Source: an uncultured Verrucomicrobiae bacterium (lineage in GTDB: Bacteria > Verrucomicrobiota > Verrucomicrobiia > Chthoniobacterales > Chthoniobacteraceae). From it: a stretch of 64,000 nucleotides of DNA. The stretch covers positions 576,001 through 640,000 of the forward strand of contig CAVYKI010000003.1 of assembly GCA_963769025.1 (NCBI GenBank), in the 5' to 3' direction. The notes below the pieces were generated by a model, which searched no databases, was not told the origin of the DNA, and was given only the letters and a program-made list of their open reading frames with translations. Of this stretch, positions 19,543 to 43,621 are shown piece by piece (position 1 is the stretch's first letter; the number at the start of each line of letters is the position of its first letter). The translations under genes and the position numbers were made by a program.

Positions 19543-21264
19543 ATGATGAAAGCGCTCACGTTCCTCCTTCTCGCGTCGCTCACGGCCGTCATCGCCCCAC
19601 CCGGCACCGCCGCGGATGCGCCCGCGACCAATGCTGCAAAAGCGCTCAGCCCTTTCGGGGTCGGCGCGTGCAACCAGACTTCGCAGGAACTCGGCAAGTG
19701 GATCCCGCAGATGGCGGCGATCGGCATCACCAACATGCGCGCGTGCCGCACGAGCTTCGGCGACGTGGAGCCGGAGGAGGGCAAGTGGACCTGGACGCGC
19801 CTCGACGAACAACTGAGCTACGGCGAAGCGCAGAAGATGGAATTTTTCGGCCTGCTCCTCGGAAGTCCGCGGTGGAACACGAAGGACGCACCGGGCCGGC
19901 TGCCGGTGAACAATCTCCCCGCGTGGTCCGAGTATGTCTCGAAAATCGTGACGCACGCGAAAGGCCGCATCCGGTTTTGGGAGGTGTGGAATGAGCCGCC
20001 GAATTTCACGGGACGCGATCAGACACCGGAGGACTACGCGAAGATTGTCGTCAGTTCGTACGATGCGGCGAAGGCGGCGGACCCGTCGTGCCTCGTCGGA
20101 CTCGCGGCGAAATCGGTCCACGTGAATTACCTCGAACAGGTGATCAAGGCGGGCGCGAAGGATCACTTCGATTACATCACGGTGCATCCCTACGAGGTGC
20201 TCGGCACGGTGATCAACAACGCCGGGACGGAACCCGTCTTCATGAGCATCGTGCCCACGATCCGGAAAATGCTCGCCGTGCAGAATCCGGCGAAGGCGGA
20301 TGTGCCGATCTTTTTCACCGAGCTCGGCACGGACATCAAGAAGGGCCTGGACGTGCAGGGCCACGCGCTGGTGAAGGCATTCACGATGGGCATCGCGCAG
20401 GGCGTCACGTGCATCAATTGGTTCCAGGGCATGGACGGCGACAGCGGGCCGATGGGCCTGCTCGAACGCAGTGGCCGCGCGCGGCCGGCCTACAAGGCGA
20501 TGGCGCAAATGATCGAACACCTCGGCACGCATCCGAAATACCTCGGCTGGGTGCTGCTGAACCAACGCAACTACGGCTTCGTGTTCGATGGGGCGAAGAC
20601 GACCGTGCTCGTGACCTGGGCGTCGCGCGGGACGCCGGATCTCGTGGAGTTCGGCGAGACGGTGCGGATCGCGAATCCGCTCACGGGCAACGTCGCGACG
20701 GCGAACAGCCACGAACTTTCCAGCGCCCCGGTGCTCGTGCTCGGCGTGCCCGCGGATATCGTGAAGCAGGCGCGTGCAAACAAGCCGCTGCCGCTCCCGT
20801 GGGGCGGGGATGATCCGGCGGCGACGAGCGTTTCCCTGACGATGGGCGAGACGAGTGTCGAGAAGGGGCTCCACACGCTCGCCGGCGAATCCGTCGCAGC
20901 GGATGTCGTCGCCTACGGCGGCTCCGCGCGCGCGGGCGGCGTGCCCGGAGGCAACCTGTTCGTGGTGAATCCGAATTTCCTCTCCTACACGCCGGAGCCG
21001 ATCGAGATCACCGCCGTCGTCCGCCGCAATCCCGCGAACGACAACGCGGGCTTCAAGCTCGTGTATGAGTCCACCAGCGGCTTCAAGACCGCAGGCACGT
21101 GGTACACCATTCCGGACAACAAGCAGTGGCACAAGGTGAGCTGGAAGATCCACGACGCGCAGTTCGTGAGCTACTGGGGCTACAATTTCGCCCTCGAGTC
21201 GGACGGGAGCAAATTCAACAAATACTACCTCCAGAGCGTGACGGTGACGAAACTGCCGAAGTGA
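19543..21264 (+). CDS. Secreted clan GH-A glycoside hydrolase (GH39/GH5-like)
   Basis: Signal peptide; WEVWNEPP (acid/base) and FTELG (nucleophile); ITVHPY. Confidence 0.75.
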   Translation: MMKALTFLLLASLTAVIAPPGTAADAPATNAAKALSPFGVGACNQTSQELGKWIPQMAAIGITNMRACRTSFGDVEPEEGKWTWTRLDEQLSYGEAQKMEFFGLLLGSPRWNTKDAPGRLPVNNLPAWSEYVSKIVTHAKGRIRFWEVWNEPPNFTGRDQTPEDYAKIVVSSYDAAKAADPSCLVGLAAKSVHVNYLEQVIKAGAKDHFDYITVHPYEVLGTVINNAGTEPVFMSIVPTIRKMLAVQNPAKADVPIFFTELGTDIKKGLDVQGHALVKAFTMGIAQGVTCINWFQGMDGDSGPMGLLERSGRARPAYKAMAQMIEHLGTHPKYLGWVLLNQRNYGFVFDGAKTTVLVTWASRGTPDLVEFGETVRIANPLTGNVATANSHELSSAPVLVLGVPADIVKQARANKPLPLPWGGDDPAATSVSLTMGETSVEKGLHTLAGESVAADVVAYGGSARAGGVPGGNLFVVNPNFLSYTPEPIEITAVVRRNPANDNAGFKLVYESTSGFKTAGTWYTIPDNKQWHKVSWKIHDAQFVSYWGYNFALESDGSKFNKYYLQSVTVTKLPK

Positions 21265-37691: not shown

Positions 37692-38109
37692 GGCCGTGAG
37701 TTTTCGCGAATGGGACAAACACCCGCTCGCAGGCGATGAACGGAATTTTCTCCCGCTCGAAAAGCTGCCGCAGCGCCGGATCATCCGGCACGCGGATGCA
37801 GTCGTCGGTGACCTGGATGGGGAAGTGCAGGTTTCCAATCGTCCACCCGAGCCGCGCGACAGGCGCCGCCTTCGCGATGAGCGCGACTTCCAGCACAGGC
37901 TCCGCCGTTTGCTCGATGCAATAAACGGCCGTCGGCGCGGCAAAAAACACCGCGCCATCCCCGAGCGGCCCGCTGAGGTCGAAACCAAACTCCTCGCCGT
38001 CCTCGGCAACTCCGCGCCAGCGGCGCTTCGCGAGCATCTGTCGCTCGGCGCGCAAAGCGATGCGAGGAAGCGACGGAACCTCGGCGAGCGCGGCGTGGAT
38101 GAGCGTCAT
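37681..38109 (-). CDS. ureE: Urease accessory protein UreE (short, no long His tail)
   Basis: [18 protein letters not shown], position between ureC and ureF. Confidence 0.88.
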
Positions 38110-38113
38110 GCGC

Positions 38114-39926
38114 TCAGAACAGGAAATACCGCTGCGCCATCGGGAGCACGCTCGCGGGCTCGCAGGTGAGCACGCGGCCGTCGGCGCGAACGGTGTAGGT
38201 CTCGGGATCGACCTCGATGTGCGGCGTGGCGTCGTTCCAGACGAGGTGCTTCTTCGTCACGTTGCGCGTTCCCTTCACGGCGACGAGGCGCTTGCCGAGC
38301 TTCAGCGAATCGAGTGCGCCGCTTTCCAATCCGGCACCGCTGACGAACGTGACACTGGTCGAAAATTTCGCGCGGCCGTGCGCCGCAAATTGCGGGCGGT
38401 AGAACATCGGCTGCGGCGTGGGGATGCTCGCGTTCGGGTCGCCCATGTTCGCCATCGCGATGAGGCCGCCTTTCAAAATCACCTCGGGCTTTACGCCGAA
38501 GAACGCGGGCTTCCACACGACGAGGTCGGCGAGTTTGCCGGGCTCGATGCTGCCGACTTCGTGCGCGATGCCGTGGGCGATGGCGGGATTGATCGTCGTC
38601 TTCGCGATGTAGCGCAGCGCGCGAAAGTTGTCGGCGGGGAAGTGGAACCGCCAAGGCGCCAAGACGCCAAGATGGGAAGATGTGGTGCCAACGACACTGC
38701 TGCCTTTCTCTTCCTTGGCGTCTTGGCGTCTTGGCGGTTCCAAAGTGCCAAACTGCACCTTCATCTTGTGCGCCGTCTGCCAGGTGCGCGTGATGACTTC
38801 GCCGATGCGGCCCATCGCCTGCGAATCGCTCGACATGATCGAGATCGCGCCGAGGTCGTGCAGCATGTCCTCGGCGGCGATGGTCTCGGGGCGGATGCGG
38901 CTCTCGGCGAACGCGACGTCCTCGGGGATCTTCGAGTCGAGGTGATGGCACACCATGAGCATGTCGAGATGCTCGGCGATGGTGTTCACGGTGAACGGCC
39001 GCGTCGGGTTTGTGGACGACGGCAGCACGTTCAGCTCGCCGCAGACGCGGATGATGTCCGGCGCGTGGCCCGCCGCCTGCGCCTTCGCTGTGGAAGGTGT
39101 GGATCGTGCGGCCCTTGAACGCGGCGAGCGTGGCTTCGAGGAAGCCGGCTTCGTTCAGCGTGTCGGTGTGGATGGCGACCTGCACGTCGAGTTCGTCCGC
39201 GACGCCGAGGCAGCAATCGATCGCCGCGGGCGTGGTGCCCCAGTCCTCGTGCAGCTTCAGGCCGATGACTCCCGCGCGCACCTGCTCGCGCAGCGGCTCG
39301 GGCGTGGAGCAGTTGCCTTTGCCGAGGAAGCCGATGTTCATCGGGTATTCGTCTGCGGCTTCGAGCATGCGGCGGATGTTCCAGATGCCGGGCGTGCAAG
39401 TCGTGGCATACGTGCCGTGCGCAGGGCCGGTGCCGCCGCCGATCATCGTGGTCACGCCGCTCGCGAGCGCGTGCTCGATTTGCTGCGGGCAGATGAAGTG
39501 GATGTGCGTGTCGATCGAGCCCGCCGTGACGATGCAGCCCTCGCCCGCGATGACCTCCGTCGCCGCTCCGATGATCATCGTGATCCCCTGCTGGATGCCG
39601 GGATTCCCCGCATGCCCGATGCCGACGATGCGCCCGCCCTTGATGCCGATGTCGGCTTTGATGATGCCCTGCACCGCGTCGAGAATCAGCGCATTCGTGA
39701 TGACGAGGTCGAGGCACTCCGCGTCGAGCGCCGTGGACGACTGGCCCATTCCGTCGCGGATGACTTTGCCGCCGCCAAATTTCACCTCATTCCCGTACCC
39801 GCCGCTCTCCGCGATGAGGTCGCGCTCGACCTCGATGAAAAGCTCCGTGTCCGCCAGTCGCACACGATCGCCTACCGTCGGCCCGAACATGTCTGCATAC
39901 TGGCGGCGGGTGAGCGTGAGTGGCAT
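38114..39926 (-). CDS. ureC: Urease subunit alpha (frameshift near 39075; carries an in-frame repeat-derived insertion)
   Basis: [58 protein letters not shown]. Confidence 0.97.
38643..38742. repeat. ACGCCAAG-family hairpin element, copy 1 (inside ureC, in frame)
   Basis: TGGAAC-(CGCCAAG N)x3 ... 42-nt loop ... (CTTGGCG N)x3-TTCCA. Confidence 0.92.
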
Positions 39927-39936
39927 GGCTATTTGG

Positions 39937-40029
39937 GTGAACCGCCAAGGCGCCAAGACGCCAGGAGATGCAGGCGACAGAAATTGTTTCCTCCTCCAGA
40001 CCTTGGCGTCTTTGCGTCTTGGCGGTCAC
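39937..40029. repeat. ACGCCAAG-family hairpin element, copy 2 (between GxxExxY gene and ureC)
   Basis: GTGAACCGCCAAGGCGCCAAGACGCCAGG ... CCTTGGCGTCTTTGCGTCTTGGCGGTCAC. Confidence 0.9.
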
Positions 40030-40035
40030 TCATAT

Positions 40036-40455
40036 TCAGTTCGAGCAGATGACGCGTTTGATGCCGTCTTTGATGAGTGGGACATTAAAGTTAATGAGCA
40101 ATCCGAGGCACCGGCTGCTCAGTTTGAGGTAAGTCAGCATCTGTGCCTTGTGGACGGGGAGCAGGTTTTCGACGGCTTTCAGTTCTACGATGAGCTTGCC
40201 CTCGACCAAAATATCGAGGCGGAGACCTGCCTCGATTTTTACGCCATCGTAAAGCACCGGCAGAGCGACTTGCCGATCCACTTTCAAACCGCGCTTGATG
40301 AGTTCGTGCGCAAGGCAAACTTCATACACGCCTTCGAGCAAACCCGGCCCGAGTTCCGTGTGAACCTTGAACGCTGCATTCACCACGGCTTTTGCCAGCA
40401 CGTCCAACTCCTCTTCGGGCTCCTCCCTTGGCGTCTTGGCGTCTTGGCGGTTCAT
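40036..40455 (-). CDS. GxxExxY family protein (PD-(D/E)XK nuclease-like)
   Basis: LGPGLLEGVYEVCL (GxxExxY), RLDILVEGKLIVELKAV, HKAQMLTYLK, GLLINFN; ATG overlaps ureB TGA (TGATG); visibly more AT-rich than its flanks. Confidence 0.93.
   Translation of the reverse strand: MNRQDAKTPREEPEEELDVLAKAVVNAAFKVHTELGPGLLEGVYEVCLAHELIKRGLKVDRQVALPVLYDGVKIEAGLRLDILVEGKLIVELKAVENLLPVHKAQMLTYLKLSSRCLGLLINFNVPLIKDGIKRVICSN
40427..40455 (-). repeat. ACGCCAAG-family single arm forming the first codons of the GxxExxY gene
   Basis: Minus strand ATGAACCGCCAAGACGCCAAGACGCCAAG encodes MNRQDAKTP. Confidence 0.92.
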
Positions 40456-40766
40456 CAAAGTTTCCCGTTCACCTTCGCGTTGAGGCCAAAGACTTCGCGC
40501 GCACCGCTGAGCGCGACGAGTTCCACGTCACGCGTGTCGCCCGGCTCGAAGCGGACGGCGGTGCCGGCCGGAATGTTGAGGCGGAATCCGCGCGCGGCTG
40601 CGCGGTCGAAGGCGAGCGATTCATTCACCTCGTAGAAATGGAAGTGGCTGCCGATCTGGACTGGCCGGTCGCCGGTGTTGGCGACTCGCACGACTTTGGT
40701 CGCGAGCGTGAGATTCGCCGGGAGTCCCGCGGGATCGTCGGCGACGATGATTTCTCCGGGGATCAT
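40455..40766 (-). CDS. ureB: Urease subunit beta
   Basis: [38 protein letters not shown]. Confidence 0.97.
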
Positions 40767-40778
40767 CGCTGACAGGTT

Positions 40779-40871
40779 GAACCGCCAAGACGCCAAGGCG
40801 CCAAGATGGCAAAAATGCCAAAAGGCGTGCCGTTGCCCGAAAATCTTGGCGTCTTGGCGTCTTGGCGGTGA
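40779..40871. repeat. ACGCCAAG-family hairpin element, copy 3 (between ureA and ureB)
   Basis: GAACCGCCAAGACGCCAAGGCGCCAAGAT ... ATCTTGGCGTCTTGGCGTCTTGGCGGTGA. Confidence 0.92.
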
Positions 40872-40881
40872 AAAATCATGT

Positions 40882-41184
40882 TTAGCGGATCGGATTGTGA
40901 ACCGTGACGAGTTTTGTGCCATCGGGGAACGTGGCCTCCACCTGCACCTCGTGGATCATTTCCGGGATGCCTTCCATCACGTCGGCGCGTGTGAGGATGG
41001 TCGTGCCGTGACTCATCAAGTCCACCACGGAGCGGCCATCGCGGGCGCCTTCCATGATCTCGTAGGAGATGATGGCGATGCTCTCGGGGTAGTTCAGCTT
41101 GAGGCCGCGTTTCTGGCGGCGGCGCGCGAGGTCGGCCGCGACGACGATGAGGAGCTTCTCGGTATCGCGCGGCGCAAGGTGCAT
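40882..41184 (-). CDS. ureA: Urease subunit gamma
   Basis: 100 aa; [27 protein letters not shown]. Confidence 0.98.
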
Positions 41185-41875: not shown

Positions 41876-42834
41876 TCATACGGTGAGATGCCGCTTCACC
41901 ACTTCATCGGTCAGCGCTGCGACAGGCCCGGACGCCACGACCGTGCCGCGATCCATGATCGCGAAGACGTCGGCAAGCTCGCTGCAAAAATCGAGATACT
42001 GCTCGACGAGCAGGATGCTCATCTTGGCTTCGCCGTGGAGCCGCTGGAGCGCGGAGCCGATCTCGTCTCCGAGCCTCGTTCCCTCGGGCTGCTGCCTGCG
42101 GAGCTGGTCGATGCATTCGGCGAACCGGTTGAACATCGCGGGATGTTTTTCGACGCCTTCGCGCAGCAGGACGGTGATGGTTTCGCTGACCTCCGCCAGC
42201 AGCGGCGAATCCGGGCGTTCCCTCGTTGCGATAGCGTCTTCAGCGACTGGTTGATCTCGGCAAGCAATGCCGGGCTCATTGTGGTGGCCGCCGCGGCGGA
42301 GGAGCTTAATGGCATCGCCGATCTGGTCGATGATGTTGGGCTGAATGCCTTCGGTCGGCTCGTCGAGGATGAGGATCTTCGGCTCGGTGAGCAGCGCGCG
42401 GCCGATGGCGAGCTGCTGCTGCTGGCCGCCGGAGAGCATGCCGCCTTTGCGCGGCAGGAATTCCTTCAGGATCGGGAAGAGGCTGAAGACGCGGTCGAGG
42501 CTGCCGTTCGATCTTTTTGCCGAGCGCGATGGCGCCGATGTGCAGGTTCTCCTCGACGGTGAGCTGCGGGAAGATGTCGCGCCCTTGCGGGACGTAGCCG
42601 ATGCCGGCGGCGGCGCGCGCCTCGGAGGAGAGCTTGGTGATGTCCTGGCCGTCGAGCGTGATGCGGCCGGCGCTCGGCTTCATCACGCCGGTGATGCTGC
42701 GCAGCGTGCGAGGTCTTGCCGACGCCGTTGCGGCCCATGAGGCAGAAGACCTTGTGGTCCGGCACCTCGAAATCAACGCCGCGCAGGATGCGGCTGCCGC
42801 CGATGGAGAGTTCGATGGATTCTACCTTCAGCAT
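41876..42834 (-). CDS. urtE: Urea ABC transporter ATPase UrtE with long internal helical insertion (frameshifted)
   Basis: MGRNGVGKT, YVPQGRDIFPQLTVEEN, LSGGQQQQLAIGRAL, LDEPTEGIQPNI, LVEQYLDF. Confidence 0.9.
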
Positions 42835-42837
42835 GGT

Positions 42838-43621
42838 TCAGTGGGTGCGGGCCTTCCGGCCGAGATAGACTTCGATGCACGCGTTCGTCGTTCTGCACTT
42901 CATCGACCGGGCCTTCGCAGAGGACGCTGCCCTGGTGGAGCACGGTGACTTTGCGGCCCGGCGGCGATCTGCCGGACGAAGACCATGTCGTGCTCGATGA
43001 CGACGATGGTGTGCTTGCCGGCGAGGCAGAGGAGCAGTTCGCCGGTCTTGTGCGTTTCCTCGTCGGTCATGCCGGCGGCGGGTTCATCGACGAGGAGCAG
43101 CTTGGCGTTTTGCGCGAGGAGCATGCCGATCTCCAGCCACTGCTTCTGGCCGTGCGCGAGCGCGCCGGCCTTCCAGTCGCGCTGTTTCGTCGAGATTGAT
43201 CGTCTTGAGGATCTCGTCCATCCGGTCGCGTTCGGCGCTGTTCGGCTTGTGGAAGAGGCTCGCCCAGACGCCGCGGCTGCCCTCGAGGCTGAGCAGCAGA
43301 TTTTCCCAGACCGTGTGGTCGGTATAGACCGTGGGCGTCTGGAATTTCCGGCCGATGCCGAGCCGGTAGATCTGGTACTCGTTCATCCGCGTCACGTCGT
43401 GCGCGCCCTCGAATTCGATCGTGCCCGTGTCGGGCTTGGTGCGGCCGGTGATGAGATCGAGGAAGGTCGTCTTGCCCGCGCCGTTCGGCCCGATGACGGT
43501 GCGCAGTTCTCCCTCATCGAGGTAGAAGTTGAGGTTCGTGATGGCCTTGAAGCCGGCGAACGCCTTGTTCACGCCCTCGGCGGCGAGGAGAAATTGTTCG
43601 TTGGGTGGAATCGATCTTCAT
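42838..43621 (-). CDS. urtD: Urea ABC transporter ATPase UrtD (frameshifted)
   Basis: IGPNGAGKTT, GIGRKFQTP, VDEPAAGMT, IEHDM. Confidence 0.9.

Follow-up and report, generated by a model that had tools for sequence, protein, structure and literature searches.

A candidate selfish cassette of tandem-octamer arms around a GxxExxY nuclease-like gene in a verrucomicrobial urease operon

Insertion sequences of the IS200/IS605 group use an HUH enzyme, have hairpin ends and make no target duplication, and they carry no tandem-octamer arms. Homing endonuclease genes need no terminal inverted repeats. Those intervening sequences of 23S ribosomal RNA (rRNA) that bear an open reading frame (ORF) carry proteins of PF05635, the '23S rRNA intervening sequence protein' family, for which we know of no catalytic function. 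Three further systems are known to us from the available parts of their source papers. In the REPIN-RAYT system, REP doublets accompany a single-copy REP-associated tyrosine transposase, or RAYT (PMC3337134, PMC3116915, bioRxiv 10.1101/2022.05.22.493013). The STRR hairpins of filamentous cyanobacteria are built of tandem units, usually of 7 bp, occur between hupS and hupL and are given there as having no known function (PMC2670836). In Geobacter metallireducens, 24 pairs of sites were described, with four tandem octanucleotides per site; the two members of a pair are on opposite strands, the distance between them varies, and some sites separate genes of a single operon (proBA). They were read as binding sites of unknown global regulators (PMC2700814). 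Reports of tandem-repeat hairpins in operon junctions go back to the STRR studies and the Geobacter genome paper, neither of which explains them in the text available. Here we describe a 64,000-nucleotide stretch of DNA from an uncultured Verrucomicrobiae bacterium (contig CAVYKI010000003.1, positions 576,001 to 640,000; hereafter the window), in which a gene of the GxxExxY family stands between ureB and ureC, enclosed by inverted arms of tandem octamers and accompanied by hairpins with the same arms. Cassettes of this design form a family that is widespread and, it appears, undescribed, and the available literature on the protein family and on octamer repeats yielded no link between GxxExxY and such arms.

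An earlier reading of the window from its letters alone (the original prediction) had reported the arms and hairpins and proposed that the gene is an autonomous mobile element and the hairpins its non-autonomous derivatives or substrates. The features concerned are the following, where H1, H2 and H3 are the hairpins.

38106..39926, minus strand: ureC (urease alpha), with H1 inside it in frame and one extra base near 39069
38643..38742, no strand assigned: H1, a gene-less hairpin inside ureC with two CGCCAAGN x3 arms and a 42-nucleotide loop
39937..40455, minus strand: the whole cassette, arm-GxxExxY-arm-loop-arm', between the ureB stop and the ureC start
39937..40029, no strand assigned: H2, a hairpin directly 3' of the GxxExxY stop codon (pattern, fold)
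40036..40455, minus strand: the GxxExxY / PD-(D/E)XK gene, 139 amino acids (profile, conservation, structure model)
40427..40452, minus strand: the 5' arm, AAC-(CGCCAAGA)x2-CGCCAAG, equal to codons 2-9 of the GxxExxY ORF
40455..40766, minus strand: ureB, whose stop overlaps the cassette's ATG as TGATG
40779..40871, no strand assigned: H3, a gene-less hairpin between ureA and ureB (pattern, fold)
40882..41184, minus strand: ureA (urease gamma; profile and ORF)

Seven arms of the form AAC-(CGCCAAGN)x3 lie in 38643-40871. In the two arms that enclose the gene, a short TGAAC motif at the terminus precedes the three tandem octamers. When we searched the window for the pattern CGCCAAGNCGCCAAGNCGCCAAG with up to two mismatches, the seven matches all fell within 38649-40867, and 100 dinucleotide shuffles gave an expectation of 0.00; the claim that seven arms occur within 2.2 kb and none elsewhere in the window therefore stands. 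Six of the arms pair into H1, H2 and H3, for which DNA folding gave -39.7, -30.6 and -38.3 kcal/mol (z -8.6, -5.9 and -9.1). Shuffled sequences fold far worse, and the three inverted-repeat elements originally proposed are thereby upheld. The seventh arm was correctly placed in the 5' codons of a gene that profiles confirm as GxxExxY, lying between ureB and ureC and joined to ureB by the TGATG overlap. Its inverted partner is the distal arm of H2 (39937-39965), with an inverted flank match of 19/20, and 39937-40455 has, as predicted, the form of a cassette bounded by inverted repeats. The gene core is 54.2% G+C, against 63-66% in ureA, ureB and ureC, in line with the earlier remark that it is more AT-rich than its flanks. 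We also extended the search to the whole assembly (5,336,811 bases, 83% complete; genome G000, with other G-numbers for genomes of relatives and L-numbers for fetched loci). It holds 12 such arms, and seven of them cluster in the window around the assembly's only PF13366 gene, which itself starts with a CGCCAAGN-type arm. The host sites of these units are the ureA/ureB and ureB/ureC junctions and the ureC coding sequence, not a 23S rRNA helix. Within ureC, H1 is in frame and supplies 33 codons in place of 3-11 codons in a length-variable loop of urease alpha.

The ORF matches PF13366/PDDEXK_3 (1.1e-41, 142.3 bits, cut-off 22) and TIGR04256, GxxExxY (2.4e-43, 147.2 bits, cut-off 35). The text for TIGR04256 at NCBI presumably mentions N-termini encoded by simple repeats. 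PF13366 is the sole Pfam match of the gene, and no match to a Y1 HUH (RAYT) transposase was found. Across 63 sequences, G38, E41, D81, K93 and F123 are invariant, and Y44, E51, E91 and Q105 are nearly so (Y44 and E91 in at least 90%); the protein has both the family's GxxExxY motif and the catalytic set of a PD-(D/E)XK enzyme (E, D, ExK). An AlphaFold model (pLDDT 91.8) is confident apart from residues 1-11, the peptide encoded by the arm. Its best fold match is 3ijm (Z 8.1, root-mean-square deviation 2.8 over 97 residues), and most of the 50 rows returned are restriction-endonuclease-like nucleases, with BpuSI, SwaI, Cas4 and CinB at Z 7.5-7.7 and Hjc at Z 6.2. Foldseek against the PDB gave no match at E <= 0.001, and a sequence search of solved structures gave nothing below E 0.7. 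Both the catalytic residues and the modelled fold agree with the original assignment to a PD-(D/E)XK-like family. The model confirms a restriction-endonuclease-like fold, from which no specific function follows; the function of PF13366 is listed as 'Unknown' in the available part of one survey (PMC3424549).

Aligning the ure region from nine relatives, as the original prediction had also suggested, revealed empty sites. H1 is absent in all nine. H3 is likewise absent in all nine: the ureA stop stands directly against the ureB ATG in seven, and the remaining two (L008, L010) have a spacer of 0-5 nucleotides. The ureB/ureC junction is bare in five relatives (ureB stop, 0-3 nucleotides, ureC ATG), four of which have ureC DNA 91-93% identical, and two others have different short spacers. 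The last two, G007 and G016 (79% identical DNA), hold an orthologous GxxExxY cassette with 81% amino acid identity. In these two genomes every octamer, at the gene start and in the 3' arm, is CACCAAG or CACGAAG and not CGCCAAG, so both ends of the cassette have changed together. At this junction the spacer of G001 (L002) is a different small repeat, an insert of ~75 nucleotides that contains a 14-nucleotide tandem (ATTTAGGATTTCTG / ATTTAGTATTTCTG).

Public metagenomes hold empty forms as well. Contigs of related organisms join 38637 to 38745/6 over 29-30 other letters, which is the empty form of H1. The cassette-empty form appears in a contig from an RNA run, which joins 39928 to 40459 over GCTAG, and with a second filler in contig X1, which joins 39929 to 40459 over CTAG. 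Metagenome contigs of relatives also hold CGCCAAG arms joined over many different short fillers. The contigs (X1, X2, X3 and X13) come from relatives, no sequencing run having held more than 17% of the sampled words, and therefore do not decide within-strain polymorphism or the ureC frameshift. Across the alignments, the contigs and the junctions of G000, the cassette occurs either entire or not at all, and its empty sites are clean. These data show that the unit is gained or lost whole and that the junctions are left clean. Compared with close relatives, the cassette and the hairpins are clean insertions, which supports the original prediction on this point.

The arm-gene-arm design is general in this bacterial family. 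PF13366 occurs in 59 of 81 sampled family genomes, with 0-7 matches each, and one homologue is labelled Chthoniobacteraceae by its source. Sixty of these loci, together with G007 and the window, make up a family set of 62. In this set the best inverted match of the 5' flank with the 3' flank reached at least 17/20 in 55 of the 62 loci and at least 18 in 49. When the 5' flank of one locus was compared with the 3' flank of another, only 21 and 10 of ~305 permuted pairs reached these values. Because 55 of 62 own pairs but 21 of ~305 permuted pairs reach 17/20, we conclude that the arms are locus-specific partners. The repeat unit is mostly 8 nucleotides and sometimes 9-10; a strict period detector called 35 of 141 flanks (27 at period 8, 5 at period 9, 3 at period 6) and made no call in the other 106. 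The 5' arm is purine-rich (>=0.55) in 46 of 55 loci. Three or more arms, and with them extra gene-less hairpins beside the cassette, are present in six of the 62 loci, as they are in the window. Octamer families other than CGCCAAG include CGCAGAG and CCGCAGAT. A loose period-8 scan also produced 'solo' arms (n=63), many of which were G+C-rich chance runs or had a degenerate partner, and these were left out of the counts.

Cassettes recur at particular host junctions in different genera. In the family set, nine loci lie at pheS/pheT, six at nuoK/nuoL and six at gltB-like/gltD-like junctions; four lie at ureB/ureC (G000, G007, G058 and G057) and two after trxB. At pheS/pheT, nuoK/nuoL and the gltB-like site, where relatives have insertions, the junctions of G000 are short and clean and have no arm remnants. 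In a maximum-likelihood tree, the 62 proteins group by host junction rather than by genome. The tree requires 18 label changes, with a minimum of 11 and a shuffled mean of 37, and none of 200 shuffles was as low. The nine pheS-site proteins form one group (support 92/90), and a few rows have switched site. Since the tree follows the host junction, the cassettes are old, site-faithful lineages with patchy occurrence.

The relatives of the window protein extend well beyond this bacterial family. At least 7,997 protein clusters match it at E <= 1e-10, and homologues named from Cyanobacteria, Acidobacteriota, Kiritimatiellia and Terriglobia are 66-72% identical and keep the arm-encoded N-terminal peptide MNHQDTKTPR or a near variant. 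We examined the 80 best loci from a species-level genome collection covering many phyla (53-81% identity). Only one of these lies at ureB/ureC and 79 lie at other sites; the lineage has therefore moved to new sites and new hosts. Of the 80 loci, 64 have tandem C[AG]CNAAG arms. Among the family loci, such arms are found in 10 of 13 at >=55% identity to the window protein, in 7 of 29 at 45-55% and in 0 of 20 below 45%. Because this share falls with identity, we conclude that arm type follows protein subfamily, also across phyla. In the cross-phylum set the flank test reached at least 17/20 in 49 of 78 testable loci versus 79 of 308 permuted pairs; the similarity of arms within this subfamily raises the control value.

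The original prediction also implied that gene-less hairpins share their octamer with the 5' arm of the resident gene. The genes at the ureB site have CGCCAAG arms in G000, CACCAAG arms in G007, G016 and G058, and CACGAA-type arms in G057. Matches to the CGCCAAG-type and the CACCAAG-type pattern number, respectively, 18 and 0 in G000, 2 and 6 in G007, 0 and 2 in G016, 16 and 42 in G058, and 0 and 0 in G057. The hairpin octamer thus matches the arms of the resident gene in G000, G007, G016 and G058, and the agreement is good, not strict; the expectation held in these four genomes and failed in G001, G012 and G008, as set out below.

Our leading explanation, which we hold tentatively and at slightly less than even chances, is that the region contains one complete and three gene-less selfish cassettes, whose nuclease acts on the stem formed by its own arms, and that homing-like repair spreads and homogenises the units. 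The way in which the unit moves is inferred. The cassette at ureB/ureC would use the transcription of the operon and probably the ribosomes of ureB. On single-stranded or extruded DNA the arms could pair into a stem, which the nuclease encoded by the cassette would recognise or use as its substrate. A cut at the stem would lead repair to copy the unit into arm-bearing or empty alleles, as in homing, and the same repair could keep all arms of one genome identical. The gene-less hairpins would then be empty targets or products of gene loss.

Several observations weigh against this explanation. Some hairpins lack a cognate gene: G001 has three CGCCAAG hairpins, one of them at urtD/urtE directly before urtE (L163, about 800-895), and G012 and G008 have one each, and none of the nine GxxExxY genes of G001, G012, G008, G014 and G004 has CGCCAAG arms. 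G000 itself has many further period-8 hairpins, most of them built of CGCRGAG units; about 17 of this type are without a matching GxxExxY gene in its assembly, which is 83% complete. Loops of at least 25 nucleotides from 20 gene-less hairpins of G000 are alike in only 1 of 190 pairs, and searching the hairpin loops of G000 with the GxxExxY profile gave no match (best E 9.1). In the control for this search, all six 20-residue pieces of the real gene were found at E <= 2.4e-5. Because the loops are unrelated and match no profile, the hairpins are neither whole-length copies nor recognisable deletion derivatives of the cassette. Movement must also be rare, since site-faithful lineages span genera. 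In the alignments across the junctions neither the cassette nor H1 has a direct repeat, and a possible ATGAT repeat at H3 is not clean; the original prediction had likewise seen no clear target-site duplication. Finally, the proposed mechanism does not explain the origin of new hairpins with unrelated loops. As an account of an autonomous gene with non-autonomous derivatives, the original prediction is sustained by the cassette and its cognate hairpins and weakened by the unrelated loops, the orphan hairpins and a second gene family wrapped in the same way. The picture of a transposase with miniature inverted-repeat transposable elements (MITEs) is only partly supported.

Two candidate origins of the loops were rejected. 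Loops as remnants of the GxxExxY gene are ruled out by the profile search with its positive control, and the H3 loop as captured host DNA is ruled out by the relatives that have 0-5 nucleotides between ureA and ureB. Other repeats of this kind were seen along the way. Urea-utilisation junctions seem to collect such elements. The roughly 17 hairpins of the CGCRGAG type have TTTGAAAC-(GCAGAGAC)n arms and unrelated loops of 34-177 nucleotides (for example C3:270670-270789, C9:253107-253237 and C10:472960-473076), and relatives hold genes with CGCAGAG-type arms (L037, L054, L057). G000 also has long arrays of 6-9 tandem octamers (GGCGGTCG, CCCACCGT, GGGAGACG, GAGCGTCG), longer than the three-unit arms, at C13:19455-19588 and 20876-20969, C6:595857-595917 and C2:422339-422416; some stand back-to-back in inverted orientation.

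The second gene family is PF05635, which is unrelated to GxxExxY, and all three of its genes in G000 are enclosed by inverted tandem-repeat arms, with flank matches of 16, 19 and 20 of 20. They lie as follows.

C3:901204-901500, minus strand: PF05635 gene (locus L169)
C2:334758-335078, plus strand: PF05635 gene (locus L168)
C13:20530-20844, plus strand: PF05635 gene (locus L167)

Their arm units are GGAAGAT, AACGCGGA-like and GGGAGACG. The C3 copy has the layout arm-gene-arm-loop-arm' exactly as in the window cassette and lies, with a trailing hairpin, between an ABC-transporter ATPase and its permease. Because PF05635 genes are wrapped alike, the arms are neither specific to the GxxExxY nuclease nor in need of it in cis, a further point against our leading explanation. 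At least two families of cargo thus share the arms as their vehicle.

This finding favours the main rival, in which the arms are a cargo-independent wrapper or insulator and the nuclease is a passenger. The two arms would close a stem in the operon transcript, like that of an ORF-bearing 23S rRNA intervening sequence, and this stem would loop out or be processed (for example by RNase III), so that a small selfish ORF could occupy an operon junction with no polar effect. Host replication and repair, or another factor, would then be responsible for movement and for the formation of hairpins, and the gene-less hairpins would be mRNA structures, as proposed for the cyanobacterial STRR hairpins. 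All three PF05635 genes speak for it, the one at the ABC-transporter junction in particular. The minimum-energy RNA fold of 39920-40475(-) has a free energy of -213.7 kcal/mol (z -3.8), and in it the 5' arm and the distal 3' arm form a stem that encloses the whole gene. Cassettes also sit at junctions of co-translated subunit genes (pheS/pheT, nuoK/nuoL, ureB/ureC), and orphan hairpins without a matching gene fit as well. For STRR hairpins, the available part of the source proposes roles in transcript stability or translational coupling (PMC2670836). However, the arm mismatches of the 55 loci show no excess of G.U pairs in the sense orientation: 24 are G.U-compatible in sense, 42 in antisense and 59 in neither, a weak test given that the loci are kin and the counts not independent. 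The counts therefore lend no support to selection on pairing in the sense transcript, and we set that candidate aside. A pure passenger also leaves the invariance of the catalytic residues in 63 sequences in need of a reason, the arm type tracks the protein subfamily, and RNA processing at H1, which is in frame inside ureC, would cut coding sequence. We regard this rival as possible but doubtful.

A second rival puts the hairpins first, as landing pads: repeats propagated by the host, like STRR or REP, into which GxxExxY and PF05635 genes enter between the arms, for example by arm recombination, so that a hairpin is an empty site and a cassette a filled one. The arms are indeed constant while their content varies (unrelated loops, GxxExxY, PF05635), metagenome contigs join the same arms over many fillers, and orphan hairpins are common. 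However, junctions that are occupied by cassettes in relatives are free of arms in G000, relatives that are empty at ureB/ureC have no arms there either, and the arms travel with the gene across phyla. Because empty junctions have no arms, the cassettes arrive together with their arms and not into resident hairpins, and we consider this order of events unlikely. Least probable is that the hairpins are regulatory sites bound by a host protein, with GxxExxY a host repair or defence factor under their control: the paired octanucleotide sites of Geobacter metallireducens were read in that way in the available text (PMC2700814), but the units here are patchy among relatives with 91-93% identical ureC, one copy is placed within coding sequence, the G+C content of the gene is foreign, identity to homologues named from other phyla is 66-72%, and the octamer differs between congeneric genomes.

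A bolder reading is that these cassettes and their hairpins constitute a new class of mobile DNA. A minimal PD-(D/E)XK nuclease would recognise its own tandem-octamer stem, and hairpin-dependent cutting and repair would place identical arms around unrelated inserts. We offer this as a speculative proposal that is more likely wrong than right. If true, it would explain the constant arms with unique loops and the concerted change of octamers within a genome, together with the PF05635 cargo, excision that is exact and leaves no target duplication, and spread across phyla. The STRR hairpins and the 'regulator site' hairpins of Geobacter would then be gene-less members.

Two features of the window call for care in reading it. 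The ureC gene has one extra base near 39069 that shifts its frame, and contigs of relatives do not have that base. UrtE is found in three frame pieces (profile positions 1-41, 42-107 and 132-179) and UrtD in two (window 41876-43572), and nuoL and pheT change frame in tblastn (G000 C9 near 1062000 and 904600). Because urtD, urtE, nuoL and pheT are also frame-broken, the ureC frameshift is probably a sequence error and not gene decay; in so error-prone an assembly, single frameshifts such as this one should not be read as pseudogenes. In addition, an Rfam search returned only a match to RF02514 (5' ureB small RNA) in ureC and a sub-threshold match to mir-483 on H1. The former, at window 39470-39762 (+) and 77.5 bits, is antisense to ureC and probably reflects conserved urease-alpha coding DNA, not a small RNA gene. 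The latter was taken for chance.

GxxExxY proteins number in the thousands, and a tie to junction hairpins gives both a testable role. If our leading explanation is true, the cassette is a compact selfish element that can sit inside essential operons without breaking them, and its enzyme would be a small nuclease, specific for structure or for sequence, whose recognition arm is portable. The window adds exact empty sites, an orthologous cassette in which both arms changed together and an in-frame hairpin in a urease subunit.

How, then, does this locus compare with the known systems? Like IS200/IS605 elements, the units have ends that form hairpins and show no target duplication. They differ from insertion sequences and their MITEs in that no target-site duplication is seen and in that the gene-less copies lack the internal ends of the gene-bearing element. 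The site-faithful lineages, the patchy occurrence and the exact empty sites resemble those of free-standing homing genes, yet 79 of 80 cross-phylum relatives lie elsewhere.

The gene-less hairpins resemble repeats that have been described on their own. STRR elements, as the available text presents them, are tandem short units that form a hairpin at intercistronic sites, as here, but are not linked to any gene; in our case the arms enclose a nuclease gene and the hairpin octamer follows it. The Geobacter sites, in the part of the paper available, share the paired arrangement on opposite strands, the 3-5 tandem units of 7-9 nucleotides and the location of some inside operons, and one class, with consensus TCTCCGTS, resembles arms in the relatives studied here (PMC2700814). 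They differ in having been read as regulator sites, and the available text, which covers part of the gene table, mentions no enclosed gene (PMC2700814). By analogy, STRR and Geobacter sites may describe the gene-less form of such elements.

In ORF-bearing rRNA intervening sequences, as in the predicted fold of the cassette, a long stem within the host transcript closes a loop that contains a small ORF, and the PF05635 genes of G000 carry the same kind of tandem-repeat arms. The hosts differ, since the units described here lie in operon junctions of mRNA or in a coding loop, and the arm mismatches give pairing in the sense RNA no support. REPIN-RAYT, as far as the available parts of its sources describe it, likewise combines a single-copy nuclease-type gene flanked by its own palindromic repeats with dispersed gene-less hairpins, mostly vertical and long-lived inheritance, and lineage-specific repeats. 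Unlike that system, the enzyme here has a PD-(D/E)XK fold where RAYT is a Y1 HUH transposase, the arms are tandem octamers, the hairpins share arms and not spacers, and the cassettes lie inside operon junctions and move between phyla. On this comparison, REPIN-RAYT is the nearest known system in logic, and the ORF-bearing rRNA intervening sequences the nearest in layout.

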